A stretch of DNA of 64,000 nt from Candidatus Latescibacterota bacterium (GCA_965197905.1 CBDAOB010000001.1:32001-96000); one strand, 5' to 3'; counted from the first letter of the stretch, positions 3,432-43,206 are shown. The notes: a model not told the origin generated them from the sequence alone. A program made the numbers and translations.

Positions 3432-4892
3432 TTAAAGTGCTTTGCGGTACCTTTGCGAGTTTATTCCAAGTTGATCTCTGTATTTTGCGACCGTGCGACG
3501 GGCTATCTGCAAGCTCTCTTTGCTGAGGATATCGGCGATCTCTTGATCGCTGAGTGGCTTGGTTTTGTCTTCGTCTTCGATCAGACGGGATATGCGCTCT
3601 TTGACACTGCGGGCGGACACATCTTCACCGCTGTTGGTGCTGACCTTGCTATCGAAGAAGTACTTGAGCTCGAACACCCCGTGTGGGGATTGCATGTATT
3701 TGCCGTTACTGACTCTGCTGATGGTCGAGACGTGCATCTCGACGGCATCTGCTACGTCTTGCAGTACCATCGGTTTCAGATGTGCAGGTCCGTGCTCGAA
3801 GAAAGGCATCTGCATTCTAACGATGTAGTTGGCCACCTTGAGCATGGTTGTTCGCCGTTGATGGATGGCGTTTATCAACCAACGAGCATCGTTCAGCTTC
3901 TTTGTTACATAGGTTTTCACCTCGTCCTTGCCGTTGCGCCGCGAGTCCTTGAGTAACTGAGAATAGGAGCTGTTGATACGCAGGGAAGGCAGGGTTCCAT
4001 CGCTCAGGCTGACCACCCATTCTTCTCCGACCTTCTCGACGATTATGTCCGGCGTTATGTAGCTGACCTCCGTATCCAGTGTAAGCAGACCCGCATAGTC
4101 GCTACTGCTGGGCGAACCGGGGTACGGTTGCAGGTTCTCGATAAGGTCCAGGGCGTCGCGAAGATCATCCTCCGAAATGCCCAGCGCCCGGGTTATGCGC
4201 GTGAAGCGACGCTTTGTCAGATCCTCCATGTGGTCGCGCACGATCTCCAGAGCGAGAACCCGGCGTTCGTCTTCGAGCAAGCGCAACTGCAGCATGAGAC
4301 ATTCACGAAGATCGCGGGCGGCCACGCCCGGCGGATCAAAACCTTGAATGACTCCCAGTACCTCTTCGATCTCCTCAGTTGGCAGATTGAGATTCTCGAT
4401 GAGGTCCTCGACGGAACACCCCAGGTATCCCTTCTCGTCGAGATTTCCGATGATGAACTCGCCGATCTCGACCTGTGGTTCGGTCAGATCGCCAAGCACC
4501 AGCTGTTCGCGCAGCTGATCTACAAGAGGAGGAATAACCGTGATCCGGTTCTCCTGCGGTTCCCGGTCGGTTTCCCAATTCGGATCGTATTCCGTGCGTT
4601 CACTATTGTAGGAGCCCTGATCGAACTGGTCTTCCAGCAGCGCATCCCAGTCGATCTGCTCCATGTCCTCCGGCAGCTCCTCCTCTTCCTTCAAGCCGTC
4701 ATCAGCATCCGCCTCGGCGTCCTGGGAGTTCTCCTCCTGCTCCATCCCCTCCTCGAGCATTGGATTCAACTCCATCTGCTGCTTGATCTCCATCTCCAGC
4801 TCGAGAGTGGACATCTGCAGCAGCTGCAGCGATTGAATCAGCTGCGGCGCCATTTTCTGCTGCAGACTCAGATTTTGTGAGATGCGAAGCAT
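3432..4892 (-). CDS. rpoN: RNA polymerase sigma-54 factor
   Basis: Q/L-rich region I, MHVSTISRV HTH, RpoN box ARRTVAKYR. Confidence 0.97.
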   Translation of the reverse strand: MLRISQNLSLQQKMAPQLIQSLQLLQMSTLELEMEIKQQMELNPMLEEGMEQEENSQDAEADADDGLKEEEELPEDMEQIDWDALLEDQFDQGSYNSERTEYDPNWETDREPQENRITVIPPLVDQLREQLVLGDLTEPQVEIGEFIIGNLDEKGYLGCSVEDLIENLNLPTEEIEEVLGVIQGFDPPGVAARDLRECLMLQLRLLEDERRVLALEIVRDHMEDLTKRRFTRITRALGISEDDLRDALDLIENLQPYPGSPSSSDYAGLLTLDTEVSYITPDIIVEKVGEEWVVSLSDGTLPSLRINSSYSQLLKDSRRNGKDEVKTYVTKKLNDARWLINAIHQRRTTMLKVANYIVRMQMPFFEHGPAHLKPMVLQDVADAVEMHVSTISRVSNGKYMQSPHGVFELKYFFDSKVSTNSGEDVSARSVKERISRLIEDEDKTKPLSDQEIADILSKESLQIARRTVAKYRDQLGINSQRYRKAL

Positions 4893-22525: not shown

Positions 22526-24046
22526 TTATACGGGACGGAATCTGGCTTTGAATTCCTCGACCACCGCCTTAAGCTTCTCCTGGGTGTCATCGCTCAGATT
22601 CTTGCTGTCGCGAATCTCGCCCAGCAGCTCTGAATGCTGCTGACGAAGGTGGTCGAGTAGGTTGGCTTCGAACTGCCGCACTTGGTCGGTGGGGAGGTCG
22701 TCGATAAGATTTCCTGCGAAAAGCGCTGCGACCTGCTCCTCCTCGGGCATGGGCACGAACTGATTCTGTTTCAGGATCTCGGTCAGTTTTTCTCCCCGGT
22801 TCAGCAGATTGCGCGTGGAGGCGTCCAGATCGGATGCCCCGAACTGGGCAAACGCTTTGACCTCGTTGTACTGGGAGAGGTCGACGCGCAAGGTTTTCGC
22901 AACCGCTTTCATCGCTTTCGTCTGTGCGGCGCTGCCGACGCGAGACACGGAGGCACCCACGTCCATCGCCGGCCTGACTCCCGCATAGAATAGCTCGGGC
23001 TTGAGCAGGATTTGACCGTCGGTGATCGACCAGACATTGGTCGGTATGTAGGTCGACACGTCCCCTTCGAGGATCTCGATGATGGGCAGCGCGGTCAGGG
23101 TGCCCCCACCCTTCTCATCGCTGAACTTGGCCGCCCGTTCCAGCAGGCGCGAGTGCAGGTAGAATACATCCCCAGGATACGCCTCGCGGCCGGGTGGACG
23201 GCGCAACACCAGAGACATCTCGCGATACGCCCACGAGTGTTTGGAAAGATCGTCGTAGACGATCAACGCATTCTCGCCCTTATCGCGAAAGTATTCACCC
23301 ATGGAACAACCGGAATATGGAGCAAGATACTGCAGAGGAGCCGGATCGCTTGCGGGAGCCGACACCACGGTGGTGTACTCCATGGCGCCGTTATTCTCCA
23401 GATCGCTGACGATCTTGGCAACGCTGGAGCTCTTCTGACCGATGGCCACGTAGACGCATTTGACGCCGGATTTCTTCTGATTGATGATGGCATCGATGCC
23501 GATGGCCGTCTTGCCCGTCTGCCGATCGCCGATGATCAGCTCCCGCTGTCCCATACCTATGGGAACGGTAGCATCGATCACCTTGAGCCCGGTCTGCAGC
23601 GGCTGCTCCACCTTCTGCCGATCGATCACCCCGGGCGCCATCCGTTCGACGGGTAGCGTGCGCGAAGTCGAGATGTCACCCTTTCCGTCGATAGGCTGCC
23701 CCAGGGGATTGACCACCCTGCCCAGCAACTCCTCGCCGACGGGCACCTCGACGATGCGCCCGGTGCGTTTGACCTGATCGCCCTCGACGATATGCGTGTC
23801 TTCTCCGAAGAGCACGCAACCGACATTATCTTCCTCGAGGTTGAGGGCCATGCCCATGATCCCATGGGGAAATTCCACCATCTCGGTTGCACGCACGTTC
23901 CCGAGCCCGTGAACCCTGGCGATTCCGTCACCAACGTAGAGTACCGACCCGGTTTCGGAGACATCGACCTCCTTTTCGAAACCGAGCAACTGCTGCTTCA
24001 GGATCGCGGAGATCTCTCCGGGTTGAACCATTGTCTCTGACGCCAT
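22526..24046 (-). CDS. atpA: ATP synthase alpha
   Basis: [37 protein letters not shown]. Confidence 0.98.
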
Positions 24047-24086
24047 CTCTCTTCCTTCCGGATTCTTCTTTTCTATAACCTTACTA

Positions 24087-24626
24087 TCAGGTACCGACCA
24101 AGTGCCGGTGCAGGCGCTCCAGATAGGTTGCAACGCTGCCGTCGTACACCGTGTCACCGATGCTAGCCACGGCGCCGCCGCGAATGGCCGGATCGACTTC
24201 GACGTGCAACCTTACCTCCTTGCCCGAAATCTCCGCCAGGCGCCGGCGCAGCCGTCCTATCTGATCTTCTCCCAGGGGAACGGCCGAACGAACCTCTGCG
24301 GAAATGACGCCGGATCTTTCGTCGCACAAGGCTTCGAAAAGCTCAAGCATTTCGGGAAGCAGGTCGGTGCGCCGCCGCTCGGTGAGGAGCAGGAGGAAGT
24401 TCAGGGTCAAACTCTGGACTCGTCCCCCGAACAAACGCTCGAGAGCACCACGCTGCAGCAATGAACTCATATAGCGATTGCCTACAAACGAGGCCAGCTC
24501 CTCCGATTGCTCGAGAGTCTGTCGTAGGCCCCGGACGTCGCTTCGAACCGCGTCGAGCACGCTACTTTCCTCGGCGGCTTCCAGCAGGGTGGCTGCATAG
24601 CGCCGAACTACCTCGGGTGCTTTCAT
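24087..24626 (-). CDS. atpH: ATP synthase delta
   Basis: RRYA..L, NFL.LL, SAVPL, VDP.I.GG, DGSV. Confidence 0.93.
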
Positions 24627-25305
24627 CTTCCTCTCGGAATCGCTTCGGGCCGGATGCGCTGCTCAATAACTGGCCTTGCAAAATTGCGGCGCAGAGGCGC
24701 CCGGCCCGCAAGACGCGCGATCGAGCCATATTGGTGGATATGGCGAGTGAGCGCAACGCAGCGGGCTGGGATGCATCGGCGGCGAAATGCAAGGACGGTT
24801 GTTGAACAGTGCATTGGTTGTCGCTGGGAATGCCCGCAATGAGGTCCTCGACAAGTTTGCGGTTGCGCTCGTCGTCCAGGTTCGCTTCGATCAGAGCACC
24901 GGCCGCTTTCACGGCCAGATCCGCCGTCTCCTTGCGCAACTCGGCTATAGCCGCCTGCTTTTCGCTCTCGATGGCGCGCCGCGCTTGCTCGGTCGTCCGC
25001 TGAGCCTCCTGGCGAGCGTTCGAGACGATTTCCTGCTCGACCTTCTCCGCCGCTTCCCGGGCCAGCCGGACGATCTCTCGCGCCTCGGCGTCGGCGCCCT
25101 GAAGTTTCTGCTGATGCTCTTCGACGATGGACTGAGCTTCTTTTCGAGACCGCTCCGCCGTCTCCAGCGCGTCGCTTATCCGTTTTTCCCGCTCGTCGAG
25201 CGCGCCAAGAAGCGGACGCCATACGGTTGCGCGCAGAACCACCAGCACCACAAAGAAGGTGACTAGGGTCCATATTATGGTTCCTACATGGGGATCTAAT
25301 AGCAT
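24562..25305 (-). CDS. atpF: ATP synthase b; reading frame runs ~80 codons past the expected end (~24814) through a palindromic element
   Basis: N-terminal TM, W.PL..ALDERE..I, coiled coil; b-like sequence ends at ...IAGIPSDN. Confidence 0.9.
   Translation of the reverse strand: MLLDPHVGTIIWTLVTFFVVLVVLRATVWRPLLGALDEREKRISDALETAERSRKEAQSIVEEHQQKLQGADAEAREIVRLAREAAEKVEQEIVSNARQEAQRTTEQARRAIESEKQAAIAELRKETADLAVKAAGALIEANLDDERNRKLVEDLIAGIPSDNQCTVQQPSLHFAADASQPAALRSLAISTNMARSRVLRAGRLCAAILQGQLLSSASGPKRFREEDESTRGSSALCSHPAGSRRGK
24654..24814. repeat. palindromic (MITE/RPE-like) element, copy 1
   Basis: Imperfect terminal IR ATGCGCTGCTCAATAACTGGCCTTGCA / TGCAAGGACGGTTGTTGAACAGTGCAT; folds as one long hairpin; core homologous to 34580..34685. 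Confidence 0.8.
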
Positions 25306-25325
25306 CTTCGGGTCTCGTCAGCTAG

Positions 25326-25565
<240 letters not shown>

Positions 25566-25589
25566 CTAGCCGTGCACATGTGATTCCCG

Positions 25590-26426
25590 CTAATGCTCCG
25601 GATGAGCAGCCATGTTGATAAACAAGGCAGATAGCAGGGTGAAGATAAACGCCTGAATAAAACCGATAAAGATGTCCAGCAAATAGAGAGCTACCGCGAA
25701 GGTCACCGAAAAGGGCGCCAGCCAGAGCGCCTTCATCATGATGACGAGGCCCAGAAAGACCAGGATCGCCACGTGTCCGGCGATCATGTTAGCGAAAAGT
25801 CGTATACAGAGGGCAAACGGTTTGGCGAGCAAGGAGATGAGCTCGATGGGAATCATGATAATCAACAGCGGCGCCGGCAACCCCGGGGGGATGAGGCTGC
25901 GAAGATATCCGAACAGACCGTTATTGGCGATGCCCGCTCCCTGGGTTATGAAAAAGGTCATCAGGGCCAGGGCGGCGGTCACACTTACGTTCCCGGTTGC
26001 CGTCGCGGTGTACGGGATCAAACCCAGCAGGTTGCAAAACAGAATAAAGAAGAAGACGGTCAACAGGTACGGTAGATACACCTTGCCGTGGTCGCCCATG
26101 ATCGGAACGACGACCTCGTCGCGGATAAAAACCACCAAAGCTTCGAAGAGATTGGCCAGACCACTTGGCACGAGGGCGGAACGACGAAAAGCGAGGGTGA
26201 GAGACACGATCAGGAGTGCGCTCGCCACCCACATCATCACGATATGTCGAGAGATTGACAGATCTACGGCGACCCCGAACACGTCAATCGGGGCAAACTG
26301 TGGAAGGGAAATCTTGCCGTCGAAGAAGTGGTTTGCGTTCCAGAATGGCACCTCGAGGTAGTCATGGTCGAGAATGTGACCGACGATATCTACCTCTTCG
26401 GACGCGTGCTCCTCGCTTGCCATCAA
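25590..26426 (-). CDS. atpB: ATP synthase a
   Basis: NLLGLIP, IRLFANMIAGH, IQAFIF. Confidence 0.96.
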   Translation of the reverse strand: MMASEEHASEEVDIVGHILDHDYLEVPFWNANHFFDGKISLPQFAPIDVFGVAVDLSISRHIVMMWVASALLIVSLTLAFRRSALVPSGLANLFEALVVFIRDEVVVPIMGDHGKVYLPYLLTVFFFILFCNLLGLIPYTATATGNVSVTAALALMTFFITQGAGIANNGLFGYLRSLIPPGLPAPLLIIMIPIELISLLAKPFALCIRLFANMIAGHVAILVFLGLVIMMKALWLAPFSVTFAVALYLLDIFIGFIQAFIFTLLSALFINMAAHPEH

Positions 26427-31959: not shown

Positions 31960-32255
31960 TTCAAACTGTCCACGGCCGAGAGATCGGTGTGGCCCCGCTG
32001 GCGGTGGAGGCCAATGACGATGGCCAGTCCCGCACCCACCTGAAGGGCGGCAAACACCAGCGCGAAAAGGGCGAAGAGCTCGCCGTTCAACTCGCCGTGC
32101 AGTCGGGCGAATCCGGCGATATTCAGCGCCGCGGCGTTGAGCATCAGCCCCGACGAAAGGACTACGGCGAGGGCGTTTCTGCGCATGAGCATGCCCGCCA
32201 ATCCGATGCAGAACAGGGCGGCGCTGACGATGAGGATGGGGAACGGCTGCATCAC
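31953..32255 (-). CDS. nuoK: NuoK-like subunit (divergent)
   Basis: LFCIG..G...RRN, LMLNAA.LN, GLAIVI...R, LKW end. Confidence 0.85.
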   Translation of the reverse strand: MMQPFPILIVSAALFCIGLAGMLMRRNALAVVLSSGLMLNAAALNIAGFARLHGELNGELFALFALVFAALQVGAGLAIVIGLHRQRGHTDLSAVDSLKW

Positions 32256-32767
32256 GAGGTGTGTTGCCCTCCGGGGGCGCTGCCGGCGGCCGAGTCGGGA
32301 CTCGTCAAGACCGACGTGCCCACAGCCACCACCAGAAACGCGAACCCGGTCAAAAGCAGTGGCAACAGGAAGTCGCCGACGAGAGACCCCGCCAGACTAC
32401 CGGTCTGCTCCATCTCGGAGATTGAACCACCCGCTGGCAGAATCAAGCAGAGCAGGGAGAACAAACAGGCACAAAGGACGGCAGCGACCATGGTCCCGAC
32501 GCGAACCCGTCTGACCGCGACGGCGGACTTGAGGTTGGTGGAAACCCCCACCACGAGACAGAGGAGAGCTGAGCCGGATAACCCTATAAGGACTTCGCTG
32601 GCCCCCAACAAAGGAGTGCCGAGCTGCAGGAAAAGAGCGGCGATGCCAAGTGTAGTCGCGCCAAACAAGAAGGCGGCGCGCACGGCACTCCTTGCGGAGA
32701 CGGTGAGAATCGCCATGATCAGACAAAAAACGGCAACCAGACCGAAGGCGGCAGCTTCCAGTGTCAT
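32252..32767 (-). CDS. nuoJ: NuoJ-like subunit (divergent)
   Basis: Hydrophobic 5-TM pattern between nuoH and nuoK; ATGA-coupled on both sides. Confidence 0.75.
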   Translation of the reverse strand: MTLEAAAFGLVAVFCLIMAILTVSARSAVRAAFLFGATTLGIAALFLQLGTPLLGASEVLIGLSGSALLCLVVGVSTNLKSAVAVRRVRVGTMVAAVLCACLFSLLCLILPAGGSISEMEQTGSLAGSLVGDFLLPLLLTGFAFLVVAVGTSVLTSPDSAAGSAPGGQHTS

Positions 32768-34534
32768 CTGTACACCAGCATATACGCAGCAATAGGAATA
32801 TTGAGGGCGGTCAGAGGGATGGCCACCCTCCAAGCCCAGCACACGAGCTGGTCCATGGAGGGGCGCGGTACTACGAGGGTAGGGTCGAGAACTGGCGCGC
32901 CAGCCTTAGGGTTCGGTGGGTTCCCCATGGCTTTCGCCATAGCCCTCAGTCCGACTCCCATCGCTACGTTTCCAGTTCCCGCCGCCTCAAACCGGACGTG
33001 CGGATCTCCCGCATCCGGCTTCCCGACGAACGTCACATCCAGGCACACGCCACAAGGACTTCACCTGGTAGTCAAGCTGCTTCCGATGCATACTAGTCTT
33101 ACTGCTGGAGGCAATAGGCTCACGCCACTCTCCAACCCTCTGCACTTCCGCAGCATGTCCGAAGTCAGGCCCCTTCCCTCCACCGGAGTTACCCGGCTTC
33201 CTCGGTACTACGCGCCTGTCCGCCACCTCATCCAGCCCAGTCTGGCCCTCGCGGGTTACCGGTTGGAGGCACTCGCTGCTTCCACCGGATGAGGCTTCCC
33301 GTGTTGCGCCACATCTCCTCTTACACACATGCTGTCGCCACTACCCCGGCGGAACAGCTGGGTGCGCTTGTCGCTCGACTTCCCCAGCTGCAGCGGCCTT
33401 CCCTGGTTTACGGGCAGGTCGGCTTCCGCATTACACTTTTCGAGGCCTGCTCAGCGTTTACTCACGTTACGGCCTGTGTGCTCGCCAAGTCGCCCAAGGC
33501 GACCCTCTACACCGGAGGCTTCAGCGGCTTCGTCGCCTCCACCACTGCTCCGATTGCTACCGGCTGGAGCGACCCTTGCCGGGTGGGATTCGCACCCACT
33601 GAAGATGTGCGCCTTAGCACGGCGCACCGTAACCATTGTGTGAACAACATGAACAGCATCGATTTCGCCAACAGCAGAGCGACCCCAAGGAGCGCCCACC
33701 CCCCCCTCCTTCCCCTTCCGCGACGAACGGCAAGTGCCAGCCGCCAAGGTAGAGCGTCGCCACCAGCAGGCTCGCGGCCAGCAATCGCAAGCGCCCGGCA
33801 AGGGCCAGCAAACCCAGCGGGAGTCCGCTGTAGGAGGCTGCGTAACCGGCCTCCATTTCCTGAGACCGGCCCGAATCGAGTGGTAGGCGGTCGGCGAACG
33901 CGAAGGTTGCCGCCACCATTCCGAGGAAACCAAGTGGCTGGACCAGCAGATTCCACCGTGGCAGAAGCCCTGGAGTTGCCGCTTGGGAGCGAACGATCTC
34001 CGCCAGTTGCATGGATCCGCCGGCCAATGCCACGCCAGCTATCGCCAATCCTGCAGCGATACCAAAACTCACGACCTGCGACGCCATATTCAGCGAAGCG
34101 ATCTGGGCATAACCGTGACCGGAACCCCGGCCCGCCGCGATCAACCCGAAAGCGGCAAGCGGGATTAGCGCCACGACAACCATTGTACCGGCGCCGGCGG
34201 ATGCCAGCTGCAGTGACATGGAGAGTCCTCCGATCTCAACATCTTTCCCGAATGGAATCAAGCCAAGCAGAATCAGCGGCGGCAGCAGCGAAACGAGGGG
34301 CGCCAGGAAGAATATTCGTCGGTCACCAGCCTCCGGAGCCACACACTCCTTGCACATCAGCTTCAGGCCATCGGCGTAGGTTTGCAGCAGTCCAACGCCC
34401 CTAGCCCCGTCGTACCGTCCAGTGGCGACCCGGGTCCAACCCCTTTCAAGGAGAATGGAGAGCGGAATGAGGATACCGAAGGTCGCCCCCAGCAGCACTG
34501 CCGCCTTGATCACCAGAATGGGAATCTCTTGCAT
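32764..34534 (-). CDS. nuoH: NuoH-like subunit split by a group II intron (exon 1 34534..33628, exon 2 32878..32764) and by a frameshift at G8 (33699-33706)
   Basis: GLLQ..ADGLKL..KE, WN...QPLGF, LYLGGW; spliced C-terminus WLRLVVPRPSMDQLVCWAWRVAIPL matches NuoH WxRxxxPRxRxDQLxxxxWKxxxP. Confidence 0.85.
32879..33627 (-). mobile_element. ORF-less group II intron (749 nt)
   Basis: 5' GTGCG; domain V AAGCCGGATGCGGGAGATCCGCACGTCCGGTTT (33021-32989); 3' end CTCGACCCTAC; EBS1-like CGTAA complementary to exon end TTACG; no RT ORF. Confidence 0.93.
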
Positions 34535-34579
34535 GACTAACGTTCGCTCGTGTCCTCTACGAGAAATAGGTTGACCGTC

Positions 34580-34685
34580 GTCTGCTGCCGAGGCGCGGGG
34601 ATTGCAAGGCGCCTGAGCGAGCCTGTACTGGTGGAGTACGGCGAGTGAAGGCAACGCCGCAAGCCCCGATGGATCGGCGGCAGAC
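34580..34685. repeat. palindromic element, copy 2
   Basis: IR GTCTGCTGCCGA / TCGGCGGCAGAC; same internal loops as 24694..24777; begins at nuoG stop codon. Confidence 0.8.
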
Positions 34686-36397: not shown

Positions 36398-37740
36398 TTA
36401 GAAGCGGACGCTGACCGCTTCGGGGACCTTGATCGCCAGATCTTTTTCGACGGGACAGCCGCCAGAATCGATATGCTGTCTGAATTCGCTCTCGAACGCG
36501 CTTACAAACCCTGCAGCGGCCAGGCGAAGGCGGCTCCCAGGCCACACAGCATCGGCGATGCCGAAACCATCAGCGGCCCCATTTTTTCACCTAACTCGAA
36601 CAACCTGCCGAGATCTCCTTCCGTACCTTCCCCCGATTCGACCCGGGCGATAATGTCGCGCATCCACGGCATCCCCTCGCGGCACGGGGTGCACTCGCCG
36701 CAGGATTGCCCGGCGTAGAATTCGGCTAGATTGAGGGCGGCATCTACCATACAGGTCGTCTCGTCCATGACAATGATCCCGCCAGTGCCGAAAACACCGC
36801 CGAACTCTCCTCCTCCCGGGTGCAGCCACGCTGCCGGATCCAGAGGCACATCCAGCTGGTCGGCGTGTAGAACCGGCGACCGACCTCCCCCCGGAAGCAC
36901 GGCCTTCAGCTGATGCCCCGAGCGCACGCCACCCCCCATCTCGTAGATGACTTCACGCAAGGTCGAAGCCCCCAGCGGCAGTTCGTATAGGCCCGGCCTG
37001 CTCACGTGTCCGCTCAGGCAAAAAACGAGGGTGCCGGGATACCCCTCGCTACCGATGCCTCGGAACCAGTCGGCGCCGTTGTTCACGATGTGAGGCAGAT
37101 ATGCCAGGGTACCGATATTGGCGACCTCCGCCGGCTTGCCGAAGAGCTCCGGGACGACCGCGGTGCCGCGGGGTTCCGCCCTGAAACCTTCGATAGAGCG
37201 CAGGAGAGCCGTCGCTTCGGTCTCGATATAGGCGTCCCCGCCTGGATGTACATACACCTCGAGAGCATAACCCGTCTCCCGAACGTTGGCGCCCAGCCAG
37301 CCGTGCTCGCGCGCCGACGCTATAGCCCGCTCCAGCAACGCTCGGCCCCGGCTCATATCGCTACGCAGGCAAACGTAAACGGTCGAGGCGCGCAGAGTGT
37401 ACGCGGCGATGATAATGCCTTCGAGTATCTGATGGGGATTGCGCTCCAGCAGCTTCCGATCGCGGAACGTGCCCGGTTCGCTCTCGTTGCCACCGACACA
37501 GAGAAACTCCACTCTGCCAGCCCGTTTCTGGGCATGGTTTCTCCACCGGGCAGCGACGGGGTACCAGTCGCCGCCCCTGTCCTGCAGACCGGACTGTTCG
37601 ATCAGGTCCAGCACCTCGCCCGGTGGTCGGCGTCGCACAGCGATCTCCGCGGCGGCGTAACCTCCGTTGGCGACATAGGTGTCCCACAGTTCGATGTCGG
37701 GGACGTCGATGTCGTTCAACAGCACGCGAAACTCAGCCAC
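36398..37740 (-). CDS. nuoF: NuoF-like subunit with degenerate FMN motifs and a frameshift near 36509
   Basis: ESEPGTF.DR, SGHV.RPG.YE, SCGECTPCREG...CGLG; C-terminus FVSAFESEFRQHIDSGGCP continues in another frame to TAA at 36398. Confidence 0.85.
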
Positions 37741-38224
37741 CGGACTCTCCCTCTAGCGAAAGCTTCAATCTCTCAAGGATCTGATCGATGCGTTCCAGCG
37801 TGAGACTCTGATGCAACTCGCCATCGACCAGTATGACCGGGCCCATGCCGCAACAGGCAAGGCAATCAACTTCCTCCACGGCTACAAGCGAGTCGCTGAC
37901 GTCGATCTCCGCCAACCTCTCTTTCAGGTACTCAACCACCCGCGTGGCCCCCATCAACCGGCAGGAGAGCGTACCGCAGACACGAATCAGGTGTGCTGGC
38001 GGCGGTTGGAGACGAAAAGCGGGATAGAAGGTGGCTACTCCATAGACCCGGGCGGGAGAAAGATTCAGCTTGCCCGCAACGAACTCGATGGCCTCTTCCG
38101 AGAGGTAGCCAGCCTCACTCTGAACCAGATGCAACACCGGCAGCAAGGCCCCGGATGGCTGGGGATAACGGCGGGTGAGATCGTCGTACTCCACCACCGC
38201 TTTTGCCGAAAGCTTGAAGCTCAT
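37733..38224 (-). CDS. nuoE: NuoE 2Fe-2S subunit
   Basis: ALLPVLH..Q, VATFY, VC..LSC...G, CLACC..GP. Confidence 0.92.
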   Translation of the reverse strand: MSFKLSAKAVVEYDDLTRRYPQPSGALLPVLHLVQSEAGYLSEEAIEFVAGKLNLSPARVYGVATFYPAFRLQPPPAHLIRVCGTLSCRLMGATRVVEYLKERLAEIDVSDSLVAVEEVDCLACCGMGPVILVDGELHQSLTLERIDQILERLKLSLEGESGG

Positions 38225-39920
38225 CGATCCACCTCTCCGGCTACCACGTTGAGGCTACCCAACACCACCAGCGCCTCGGATAGGGTCATCCCATGAGCGA
38301 CATGTTCAAAGAGCTGATAATTCAGAAACGATGGCGCCCGCACCCGCAAACGGTACGGACGGTCGGAACCGTCGCTGACGATGTAGAATCCCAGCTCACC
38401 GTTGGGCGATTCGGTGGGTAAATAGGAGTCCGCGTCTGGAGGCGGCTGAATTCCGTGTCCTTCCATCCAGAGTTTGAAGTGGTGAATCATGGATGATGCC
38501 TGACTGGAGATCTCACTCCTCTGTGGGCGCCGAGCGTTTGAATTCATCGTCGAGTAGTCGCCGCCGGGAAGATCGCGGAGCGCCTGGCTGACGATGCGGC
38601 AGCTCTGGACGAGCTCTTCGACACGCACCAGATAGCGGTCGTGCACATCGCCGGTTACTCCCACAGGGACGTCGAAATCGAACTCTTCGTAGGCGCTGTA
38701 CGGCTCGTCCTTTCGCAGATCGCAACCGACGCCTGCCGCCCGCGCCACCGGGCCGCTCAACCCCCACGACCTGGCTTCGGCCACACCGATCGTCCCGACC
38801 CACGCGCCCGATCCAACCACACTCCATTGCCGTCCCACAGCGCTCGAAGCTCGGCGACCCCGCGCATCATGTCCGACAGAAATGCCGATACCCTTGCTGA
38901 GAATTCGGGCGGCAGATCGGCGGCGATTCCGCCCACGCGAACGAAGCTTGTCATCCATCGGTTTCCCGCAATGGATTCGTAGATGTCGCACAGCGCTTCC
39001 CGCCGCGTGTCAACAAGCTGGAACAGACCGTGGGCAGCGATTTGCCGGGCCTGAGACCCCAACCAGATGAGATGCTCGCCGATGCGCCCCAGTTCGCTGA
39101 GTATAACCCGGGCATACTGGGCTCTTTCAGGAACATCGACGCCCAGCAAGCGCTCGACGCACAGAACAAAGGCGAGGTTGTTGCAGAACGGCGATTGATA
39201 GTTGATCCGGTCGGTGACAGTTACAAACTGCATGTAGCTCTGATTTTCACCCAGCTTCTCTACGCCCGAATGAACAAATCCAAGATCCAACCCCACCCGA
39301 GATATCATATCCCCTTCCGCTTCCAGGTCGGCGCTCAGATTGCCTGTCATTCCCGGGTGAAGCGGCCCCAGCCGCAGGAGGTTGGAGTCGTCGACACCTT
39401 GTTGGTTCCCGGGCGCCTCCTCGCCGGGGGGCGAAACCCCGACCGGGGCAGAGCCGCACCCGGCGACGGGAAAGTCCTTGCGCAATGGAAATGATTCGAA
39501 ACTGTCGGGAAGCAGGATTCTGCGCATGTCCGGATGACCGCGGAAACGGATGCCAAACATGTCGTAGACCTCGCGCTCGAGCCAGTTCGCCGCAGGCCAC
39601 GAAGAAGCGATGCTTTCCACTTCATCGATATCCGGATCTAGTGGAACCCTGAGGCGAAGCCGGAAACCTGAGATGGACGAACGCAGTTGGTAGACGAGTT
39701 GGAAACGTTTGCCACGGCCCAGGTGGAGTCGGTCCACAGCCGTGAGGTCAACGAGGGTGTCCAACCGATCGCCATCGTGGCCGCTTAAGAATTCCAACAG
39801 AGGTTCCAGATCGGCAACCGAGACGTCCAGCGTCCACTCGCCCCGCAACTCTAGAGGTTGCAGGCGAGCTGCCCCCAGGAACTCCCGCAGGTCTAAGAGG
39901 ATCGGGGTTTCGGTTGCCAT
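38221..39920 (-). CDS. nuoCD: fused NuoCD-like subunit with a frameshift near 38800
   Basis: [30 protein letters not shown] (C); H.G.EK, GP..RA.G...[19 protein letters not shown] (D), split over two frames. Confidence 0.85.
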
Positions 39921-39936
39921 AGCGGACGCAGCCAGC

Positions 39937-40311
39937 CTAGCGAAATCCGCTCTTGCGCCAAGCGTACACAAGACCGGTCCCGACGATGACCATAAAACCG
40001 AGAATCCCGGCTACCGAGTCGTGGCCGCGCTCAAGCAGAGTGCGGAATTCAGCTGCCCAAATCAGCAGGAAGGCCAAAACGCCTGGCAGCATCAAAGTCA
40101 CGAAGACAAATCCGTAATAACGGAAGGGAAATTCACGCGGTCCTCCGAACGCGGGCCGTCCCGATTCGAACCTGGAGGTTGCGGTGCCGGTGGGTTGGTC
40201 CGGCCGCAGTCGCCGTGCAATCATCGAGCAGAAAAATACCCCCGCCAGCGCCATGATTATCAGAATTGGGATGGCGGCGTACTGCTCTATCGTCGGGGGG
40301 TAGGTTGACAC
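39937..40311 (-). CDS. nuoA: NuoA-like subunit (divergent)
   Basis: 3 TM, FESG (for YECG), [12 protein letters not shown]. Confidence 0.8.
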
Positions 40312-40677: not shown

Positions 40678-41916
40678 TCAGCCGAAGTCGTCGAAACGGA
40701 TCATTTCCTGCTCGACACCGAGGTCGTCGAGCATCTTCATCACCGCCTGCAACATCAGTGGCGGGCCGCACAAATAGTATTCGATATCTTCGGGCGCCGG
40801 GTGTTGCGACAGGTAGTTGTCGAGGACCACCTGGTGAATGAATCCCATGTAGCCAGTCCAGTTGTCTTCGGGCAACGGTTCAGACATGGCAACGTGGAAT
40901 TTGAAATTTGGATATTCCGCTTCGATCTTGCGGAAATGATCCTCGTAGAACAGCTCTTTGCTGGAACGAGCCCCGTACCAGTAGGAAACCTTGCGGTTCG
41001 TGTGTTCGGTATGAAAGAGGTGAAAGATGTGCGATCGCAACGGAGCCATGCCGGCCCCACCTCCGACGTACATCATCTCGCGCTCAGTTTCCTGAATGAA
41101 GAACTCCCCGAATGGACCGGAAATAGTCGCTTTGTCCCCCGGTTTGAGATTGAATACGTAAGAGGAGACGATTCCCGGATTCACATTCATCCACCCTCCC
41201 TTTTCGCGGTCGGGGGGAGGTGTGGCGACGCGAATATTCAACATGACGATGTTGCCTTCGGCCGGGTGGTTCGCCATGGAGTAGGCTCGGACTACGGTTT
41301 CGGGGTTGACCGTCTTCAAATCCCATACCCTGAAGCGGTCCCAGTCATCGTGGAATCTTTCTTCGATGTCGAAACCGCGGAAGTCGCATTCGAACGGCGG
41401 CACCTCAATCTGAATAAACCCTCCCGATTCGAAGTTGAGTATCTCGCCCTCGGGTAGCTTGAGAACCAGCTCTTTTATGAAGGTGGCGACGTTGTTGTTC
41501 GACACCACTTCGCACTCCCACCTCCTCACCGAGAAAACTTCTGCGGGTACGTCTATTTTCATGTCCTGCTTGACGCTGACCTGGCAGGACAGCCGCATCC
41601 CCTCGCGAGCTTCGCCCTTGGTAATGTGCTCCAGCTCGGTAGGCAGTATATCTCCGCCTCCATCGTGCACGTGGACCTTGCATTGGGCGCAGGTGCCTCC
41701 GCCACCACATGCGGACGAAACGAAGATCTGACTGTCGGCCAGTGCGTTCAACAGCTTGCCGCCAGTGGGCACCGAAATGGAGCGGTCCGGATCGTTGTTG
41801 ATAAGGATGTTGATATCGCCGCTGGGTACCAGCCGCGAGCGGGCGACGAGAATCAGCGCCACTAGAAACAACACGACCATGGTGAACATGCCGACGCCGG
41901 CGCCGATCTCAGTCAT
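40678..41916 (-). CDS. nqrF: Na+-NQR subunit F
   Basis: [44 protein letters not shown]. Confidence 0.97.
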
Positions 41917-41965
41917 CTGAACATTCTCTCTCTATCATTCACCCTGAGAAGCTTGCGACAGGACA

Positions 41966-42577
<612 letters not shown>

Positions 42578-42579
42578 AA

Positions 42580-43206
42580 TTAATGCCGATCCTCTTCGAT
42601 CTGCTCCATTTTAAACGACCGTAGCACCCAGATAAACACTCCGATGATGAAGAATGCACTGGGTGGCAGGAGCATCAGTCCATTCGGTGCGTACCACCCT
42701 CCCTCGGCTACGAGTGAAAAAACCTCGACTCCCAGCAGCGTGCCCGAACCGAAGAGCTCGCGAATCACCGCGACCACCAGCAAAATGACACTGTAGCCGA
42801 TGCCGTTACCGATTCCGTCCAACAGGCTCGTTCCCACCCCGTTTTTCATGGCGAACGCCTCGGCTCTACCCATGATGATGCAGTTGGTGATGATGAGACC
42901 GACAAAGACAGACAACTGCTTACTGACATCGAAGGCATACGCCTTCAGAACCTGATCAACAATGATGACCAGAGAGGCAATGACGGTCATCTGCACGATA
43001 ATGCGGATGTTGGTCGGCACGTGCTGTCGAATCAGACTGACTCCCATGTTGGAGAAAGCCAGCACGAAGATAACGGCGAGACACATCACCATCGCCGTCT
43101 CCAGTTTGCTGGTGACAGCCAGTGCCGAGCAGATACCGAGTATCTGTAGAGCGATCGGGTTGTTATTGAAGACGGGGTCGAGCAGGGTCTCTTTGTTCTT
43201 AGCCAT
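42580..43206 (-). CDS. nqrD: Na+-NQR subunit D
   Basis: [31 protein letters not shown]. Confidence 0.96.

Follow-up and report, generated by a model that had tools for sequence, protein, structure and literature searches.

An ORF-less group II intron with a strain-polymorphic insertion in the frame-broken nuoH gene of a Candidatus Latescibacterota bacterium

Group II introns that lack an open reading frame (ORF) are rare in bacteria and are nearly always accompanied by related introns bearing an intron-encoded protein (IEP), according to PMC4424553. In Thermosynechococcus elongatus, the TeI3 introns, which have no ORF, are mobilized by the “driver” IEPs of TeI4 introns; after a single deletion of the ORF, the compact form proliferated, with twintrons and few insertions into genes, as described in PMC2882425 (Mohr, Ghanem & Lambowitz 2010). 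Here, we describe an ORF-less group II intron that interrupts nuoH, a gene of the complex I (nuo) operon, in a 64-kb stretch of DNA (CBDAOB010000001.1:32001-96000, referred to as the window) from the genome of a Candidatus Latescibacterota bacterium (G000; 6.69 Mb in five contigs, C1-C5). Plain coordinates are those of the window. We consider it likely that this intron is a recent, strain-polymorphic insertion of a trans-mobilized element into a probably dead nuoH gene, and that it has not been domesticated. With a related IEP-bearing intron in the same genome, it fits the rule drawn from PMC4424553.

The organellar introns of nad1 and ndhA offer a second comparison. Like them, the nuoH intron has no ORF, lies in the gene of the NuoH/ND1 subunit, and would need a trans-acting factor for splicing. 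Organellar group II introns are fixed, vertically inherited, and located in working genes (PMC4424553), whereas the nuoH intron is multi-copy, strain-polymorphic, and situated in a frame-broken gene. A literature search by titles and the beginnings of abstracts returned no prior account of a bacterial nuoH intron or of such introns in Latescibacterota.

Group IIC introns recognize their targets by a very short intron-binding site 1 (IBS1) together with a DNA stem-loop. The group IIC-attC introns (e.g., S.ma.I2) enter the attC sites of integrons and have an IEP without an endonuclease domain, two features that they share with the family of the nuoH intron (PMC4424553, PMC3001079). They lie opposite to the orientation of the gene cassettes, and associations of group IIB introns with integrons are single or truncated copies following an attC site with poorly conserved flanks; both statements are taken from PMC7923331.

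The intron and its family

The intron reads on the minus strand. It was compared with copies in its own genome, with nuoH in two genomes of the same genus (G002 and G001), with related introns in G002 and in genome G020, and with contigs from sequencing runs (X1, X2, X5, and X9). Its features are as follows.

32879..33627, minus strand: ORF-less group II intron of 749 nt (Rfam matches; 12 full copies and one truncated copy with identical ends; intron-free alleles in G002, G001, and run X2)
33623..33627, minus strand: 5′ splice-site consensus GTGCG (sequence and copy alignment)
33462..33601, minus strand: domain I core, RF02003 group-II-D1D4-4 (106.8 bits, E 7e-23, full model)
33406..33412, minus strand: exon-binding site 1 (EBS1), CGTAAAC, in the loop of a hairpin in domain I (pairing at 12 distinct sites and covariation in the G002 and G020 relatives)
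33628..33634, minus strand: IBS1 GGTTACG at the end of nuoH exon 1 (6/7 pairs with EBS1)
33028..33160, minus strand: shortened domain IV, intron positions ~468-600 (alignment to the relative bearing a reverse transcriptase, RT)
33115..33133, minus strand: recognizable remnant, within domain IV, of the ribosome-binding site (RBS) and the beginning of the RT ORF that was lost (same alignment)
32989..33021, minus strand: domain V with AGC triad and 2-nt bulge (RF00029, 39.2 bits, and fold)
32881..32986, minus strand: long domain VI, in which the branch-point A (32885) is bulged (minimum free energy, MFE, fold of the 3′ 159 nt)

The termini match the group II consensus 5′ GUGYG / 3′ AY, with GTGCG at 33627-33623 and ...CTAC at 32879, where the 3′ end ...CTCGACCCTAC falls in the minus-strand reading. 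RF02003 is covered over all of its model positions (1-138) against a gathering score of 49 and is the sole gathering-level Rfam match within the window. In a permissive scan of 32700-33800, RF00029 (domain V/VI) matched at 32911-33023 on the minus strand (E 6e-6). The fold of the 3′ 159 nt contains a 34-nt domain V (33021-32989) and a domain VI of ~105 nt, whose basal helix bulges A32885, 7 nt from the 3′ end of the intron. Domain IV is cut down to ~133 nt, in which the RBS/start remnant aligns with the ORF start of the RT-bearing relative; no RT-type ORF was found inside the 749-nt element. The 12 full copies agree in their first and last base while their flanks differ, which fixes the ends exactly. 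The segment 32879-33627 is a group II intron with this structure and these boundaries.

These results uphold most of a sequence-only reading of the same DNA, which had placed the 5′ end GTGCG at 33627, a domain V with AGC triad and 2-nt bulge, and a long domain VI ending at 32879. Its claim of an ORF-less intron with an exact junction inside nuoH is borne out by the shared ends of the copies, by the uninterrupted gene in G002 and G001, and by an X2 contig that joins the exons. It had further suggested running the Rfam group II models, looking for sister copies in the genome, and looking for intron-free alleles; RF02003 came out above its gathering score and RF00029 just under it, and both kinds of sequence were found.

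Within the genome, blastn returned 12 full-length copies that are 99.7-100% identical, one truncated copy ending at intron position 700, and a 157-nt 3′ fragment. Over the 749 nt, nine of these 12 show 100% identity to the nuoH copy, two have one mismatch each, and one has two 1-nt gaps. Such near-perfect identity at different sites points to very recent mobility, which requires splicing, and the ORF-less intron appears to have spread very recently. Among 41 related genomes searched, nine contain intron matches of any kind, and the full 749-nt form occurs in one, G000. RT-bearing relatives are present three times in G002 and once in G020.

G000 itself harbors an RT-bearing relative of 1985 nt at C3:1187174-1189158. 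Its first 225 nt are identical to the ORF-less intron, and identity amounts to 91% over intron positions 1-467 and 87% over 601-749; the EBS1 is the same. It contains a 455-aa open frame giving a 441-aa protein from ATG, with RVT_1 (126 bits) and GIIM (51.7 bits) domains and a TIGR04416 score of 323.7 (cut-off 300). No endonuclease domain was detected in this IEP at E <= 0.001. Its nearest solved RTs are IIC RTs (GsI-IIC, 159 bits), although PDB neighbors do not define the class. Of the 13 group II RT matches in G000, the other twelve share only 29-32% identity with this protein, which makes the 441-aa IEP the obvious candidate helper; this RT/maturase would splice and mobilize the ORF-less intron in trans.

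At C3:1186425-1189158 (L045 926-3659), an ORF-less copy is followed directly on its 3′ side by the RT-bearing relative in a head-to-tail tandem. The identical first 225 nt suggest that one intron inserted at the 5′ junction of exon and intron, that gene conversion took place, or both. A different group II intron RT, with a 566-aa open frame, is present in eleven copies, of which ten have identical TIGR04416 scores, and one further group II RT lies at C1:176503-177609. With ~26 group II intron copies in 6.7 Mb, G000 carries an unusually heavy load.

Target sites and the integron attC arrays

The distinct insertion sites follow a common target rule. The EBS1 loop CGTAAAC (33412-33406) pairs at six or seven of its seven positions with the last exon bases at all 12 distinct insertion sites. 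The consensus target is GTTTACG, the +1 base is C at 11 of the 12 sites, and a TAACA-like motif lies ~5 nt farther upstream of the 7-base target, at about -17 to -12. At nuoH, the target reads GGTTACG, with 6/7 pairs and a poorer upstream motif. The pairing proposed in the sequence-only reading thus holds, although it is not perfect and the EBS1 is CGTAAAC at 33412-33406. Covariation is seen in the relatives from G002 and G020, which have the loop CGTGAAT and the targets GTTCACG and GTTCGCG.

An EBS2 candidate, GCTGTTCC (intron positions 270-277), seemed complementary to AACAGC and was rejected, as it is a helix strand with compensatory changes in the relatives; no other candidate stood up. 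The IEP may recognize the conserved TAACA motif; alternatively, this motif may be nothing more than the R″ core of an attC site.

Of the 12 distinct sites, seven fall within an attC-like repeat: five on C2 within 35 kb, one at C3:301156, and the truncated copy at C3:360466, whose flank duplicates one of the C2 flanks. From six rebuilt empty sites we constructed an nhmmer profile (no dedicated attC model was used), which gave 36 hits: 21 on C2, 14 on C3, and one on C4. They correspond to 23 unoccupied sites and 13 halves of the seven occupied sites. The hits on C2 and C3 are all on one strand and 0.6-5 kb apart. Each repeat has an inverse core R″ (..TAAC), a core R′ (GTTA..), and imperfect inner repeats, e.g., GCCTAAC...GTTAGGC. 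The bottom strand of one site folds with its R boxes paired at -18.6 kcal/mol, with a z-score of only -1.77. An integron integrase is encoded at C3:204281-205219 (366.7 bits; cut-off 265), and a partial copy is situated at C2:37267-37707, beside the C2 array. The attC-like arrays extend over C2:5000-37700 and C3:293000-363200, outside the window.

Within these repeats, the intron is always inserted between the left inner repeat and the center of the site, and it reads from R″ to R′, i.e., in cassette orientation. The usual homing site of the lineage appears to be the left arm of the integron attC, roughly TAACA-N4-GTTTACG|C, and nuoH is an off-target, look-alike site.

The remaining insertions comprise four copies inside long ORFs and two in non-coding DNA. 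All four of the former, including that in nuoH, are in the sense strand (4/4), the other three with open frames of 498, 619, and 670 aa across the junction. Selection for spliceability may lie behind this pattern, or it may stem from the strand bias that introns without an endonuclease are expected to show.

Empty alleles and the state of nuoH

The nuoH gene is uninterrupted across the junction in G002 and G001, whose NuoH proteins are 83% and 57% identical, respectively, to that of G000; nuoH of G002 reads ...QWLRLVVPRPSMDQ... through the place of the intron in G000. A third intron-free sequence comes from run X2, in which a 2679-nt contig covers 32500-32878 and 33631-34100 with the exons joined and three letters between. 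These three letters reconstitute the end of the exon, with a single synonymous change from TTA to TTG. The strain without the nuoH intron is ~99.6% identical to G000. In the same run, the intron family has a depth of ~174 and the nuoH exons a depth of 10 (~17 times), as is expected of DNA with ~17 copies, and the flat depth of 10 against 174 argues for DNA. In run X1, contigs span both exon-intron junctions (32522-32907 and 33603-33955), and the insertion in nuoH is therefore not an assembly artefact. Being absent from G002, G001, and the X2 strain, the insertion is not fixed at its site and is strain-polymorphic.

The two alleles differ at window position 33630 (exon position -3), where the occupied allele has A, a Watson-Crick partner of EBS1, and the empty X2 allele has G, a wobble partner. 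This may be a plain polymorphism or a trace of target preference. In run X9, the intron was found and the nuoH exons were not. A scan of the metagenome collection with a 27-nt exon pattern for other strains gave 0 matches, and each of four metatranscriptome runs contained about half of the sampled words.

The following features describe the host gene and its operon.

33628..34534, minus strand: nuoH exon 1, frame broken in a run of eight G residues (Pfam NADHdh profile positions 5-247 only; frame change)
33699..33706, minus strand: G8 run, +2 nt relative to G002, the nuoH frameshift (alignment; covered without indel by X1 and X2 contigs)
32764..32878, minus strand: nuoH exon 2 with the conserved C-terminal motif (sequence, comparison with G002 and G001)
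38221..39971, minus strand: nuoCD, in which C and D are fused, carrying a 1-nt deletion at ~38799/38800 in the assembly (Pfam split, alignment to G002)
36401..37740, minus strand: nuoF with a 1-nt deletion at ~36507/36508 in the assembly (alignment to G002)

The genome encodes a single NuoH, and its Pfam match halts at profile position 247 of 298, with the C-terminal part running on in another frame. The break lies 72 nt upstream of the intron, where G000 reads GGA-G8-TGG and G002 reads GGA-CGGCAA-TGG, a net difference of +2 nt. According to the sequence-only reading, excision restores nuoH. This is correct for the C-terminal frame, including the stop codon coupled to nuoJ by the overlap ATGA (32767-32764). 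It does not hold for the full-length ORF because of the G8 frame break upstream, which that reading had missed. The frameshift is present in contigs of both X1 and X2, i.e., also in the intron-free strain, and is therefore, by parsimony, probably older than the insertion. The gene was probably dead before the intron arrived.

Further breaks are seen elsewhere in the operon, relative to two congeners and in the assembled sequence. The deletion in nuoCD puts the two parts of the genome's sole Complex1_49kDa match, profile positions 6-84 and 83-271, into different frames; that in nuoF creates a premature TAA, while conservation of the last 37 codons continues in another frame. Genes of a Na+-NQR (nqrD, nqrE, and an nqrF-like gene) lie directly upstream of the nuo operon at 40678-43206. 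No nuoH match was obtained in 11 of the 24 genomes of the family, and complex I therefore looks dispensable. From these sequences, we infer a loss of nuo function.

No nuoI was found between nuoH and nuoJ (window 32252-34654) in G000, nor at the corresponding place in G002 and G001, and genome-wide no NuoI match exceeded the cut-off of 113 (best 77.9 bits, at C5:1428479-1428745). Genes for ATP synthase are located downstream of the nuo operon at 22526-26426. The NQR and ATP synthase genes are 94-98% identical to those of G002, compared with 78-95% for the nuo genes.

Competing explanations and relation to described introns

In the explanation that we regard as likely, the intron would be a structurally complete, non-autonomous derivative of an RT-bearing intron lineage without an endonuclease. 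Its RNA would be spliced and mobilized in trans by the 441-aa RT/maturase of C3:1187174-1189158 and would then reverse-splice into DNA sites that pair with EBS1. A very recent burst would have given rise to the 13 copies with their 99.7-100% identity, and in one event the intron would have entered the genome's only nuoH, at a sense-strand site resembling its target. This insertion would be younger than the frameshift that had probably already inactivated nuoH, in an operon with apparent further breaks in nuoCD and nuoF and backed up by the Na+-NQR. The intron would be tolerated because nuoH no longer matters and not because it has been domesticated; in vivo, the nuoH copy would presumably still be spliced. 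The structure and boundaries, the copy number, the target rule, the empty alleles, and the frameshift on which this account builds are all observed directly.

Several observations speak against this account. No EBS2 was found, nor was any loop complementary to the conserved TAACA found in domain I. The RF00029 score of 39.2 is 0.8 bit below the gathering score of 40, and the MFE of the whole intron is no better than that of shuffled sequences (z -1.33; 2 of 20 shuffles fold equally well) and is thus not counted as evidence. The kind of library behind X2 is unrecorded; if it was RNA, the contig with the joined exons would represent a transcript from another strain after splicing. Contigs from X5, a sponge metatranscriptome that may include DNA, cover the intron (32990-33627) and no exons. 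The deletions in nuoCD and nuoF were read from the assembly and could be errors in it. Amino-acid change is not in excess on the G000 branch, with 107 G000-specific against 138 G002-specific changes at 3835 nuo sites; the controls gave 16 and 17 at 1100 sites, with 0 aligned sites from atpA, which the loci compared do not reach. Any loss of function would therefore be very recent. Finally, we screened ~420 kb of G002 for frame changes, aiming at an assembly error rate or an enrichment of breaks in nuo. The result was symmetric and mostly gene-boundary noise, with 15 candidate events in which G000 is split and 21 in which G002 is split under a strict filter, and 53 clusters under a loose one.

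Of the two interpretations offered in the sequence-only reading, one saw an organelle-like, domesticated intron that only splices and resides stably in a functional housekeeping gene. Its position in the sense strand of the only nuoH, with an exact in-frame junction and no ORF of its own, would suit this idea. The genome contains 13 near-identical copies and a related IEP-bearing intron, nuoH is frame-broken upstream of the intron, and the empty alleles in G002, G001, and the X2 strain already contradict stable residence; we give this interpretation next to no credence. The other, a non-autonomous element tolerated in a dispensable gene, agrees with the frameshift of nuoH in the intron-free strain, the breaks in the assembled nuoCD and nuoF, the adjacent Na+-NQR, and the family genomes without a nuoH match. 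It is also conceivable, if improbable, that nuoH and complex I still work, with the intron removed by the trans-acting maturase, the G8 run bridged by ribosomal or transcriptional -1 slippage or by phase variation, and the breaks in nuoCD and nuoF being errors. In its favor, a G run is slippery, and slipping by -1 puts the reading back in frame; divergence on the G000 branch is not raised in the C-terminal exon or in the other nuo genes; all four copies in long ORFs are in the sense strand and hence spliceable; and the nuoCD and nuoF indels are seen only in the assembly. Yet each of three independent frame breaks in a single operon would have to be explained away on its own, neither 1-nt deletion lies in a long homopolymer, and G002 and G001 need no slippage at that place. 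The contigs of two runs contain no length variant of the G run, although contigs drop rare variants.

A specific form of this idea, that the sole nuoH is still expressed through two recoding steps, namely excision of the intron by the trans-acting maturase and slippage or phase switching at G8, seems highly unlikely to us and would require the nuoCD and nuoF breaks to be assembly errors. If it were true, a free-living or symbiotic bacterium would be at a first step toward the state of organelles, one of its respiratory genes relying on a splicing factor that acts in trans. The opposite extreme, a dead relic whose family no longer splices or moves and which simply knocks out nuoH, is quite improbable as well. 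It can draw on the lack of direct evidence for splicing, on the missing EBS2, and on the unremarkable fold of the whole intron. Against it stand the near-perfect identity of 12 full copies at different sites, implying very recent mobility, the presence of all core ribozyme elements, and a helper ORF that is open and encodes RT and maturase domains. A recent insertion of a mobile intron into a failing gene therefore remains our preferred explanation.

As a trans-mobilized ORF-less intron, the element belongs to an already known type, the TeI3-like one. Like the TeI3 introns, it is an ORF-deletion derivative in whose domain IV a trace of the ORF start survives (PMC2882425), it is accompanied by a related IEP-bearing intron, and it occurs in multiple recent copies at EBS-matching sites. 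It differs in its host, which belongs to another phylum, in having an IEP without an endonuclease domain and a single closely related IEP copy in the genome (compared with TeI3/TeI4), and in the main target of the family, the integron attC sites; its mobilization is deduced here from sequence.

The family likewise departs from the IIC-attC introns, to judge from the orientation rule in PMC7923331. It is inserted in cassette orientation, with R″ to R′ polarity, and uses a 7-bp EBS1-IBS1 pairing to the left arm of attC with a 749-nt ribozyme, in contrast to the opposite orientation and the short IBS1 with stem-loop of those introns. Non-IIC introns are also known from cassette arrays, and one of them, UHB.I2, likewise lies in cassette orientation (PMC7923331). 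Compared with these, the nuoH family occupies seven attC sites, always with the same cut inside the left arm, and includes an ORF-less derivative.

What looks like a rare bacterial counterpart of the organellar nad1 introns is instead a snapshot of a selfish element, caught mid-burst in a failing gene. The rule that bacterial group II introns avoid housekeeping genes is not really violated, because nuoH was already failing. The locus can serve as a natural polymorphism, the occupied and the empty allele differing by one synonymous base beside the site. The more interesting part is the attC-homing habit of the family and not its insertion in nuoH: an apparent sequence-specific homing to the attC left arm in cassette orientation, an ORF-less derivative, and a host phylum, Latescibacterota. 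If attC homing holds true, the interplay of introns and integrons would extend beyond the IIC-attC lineage.

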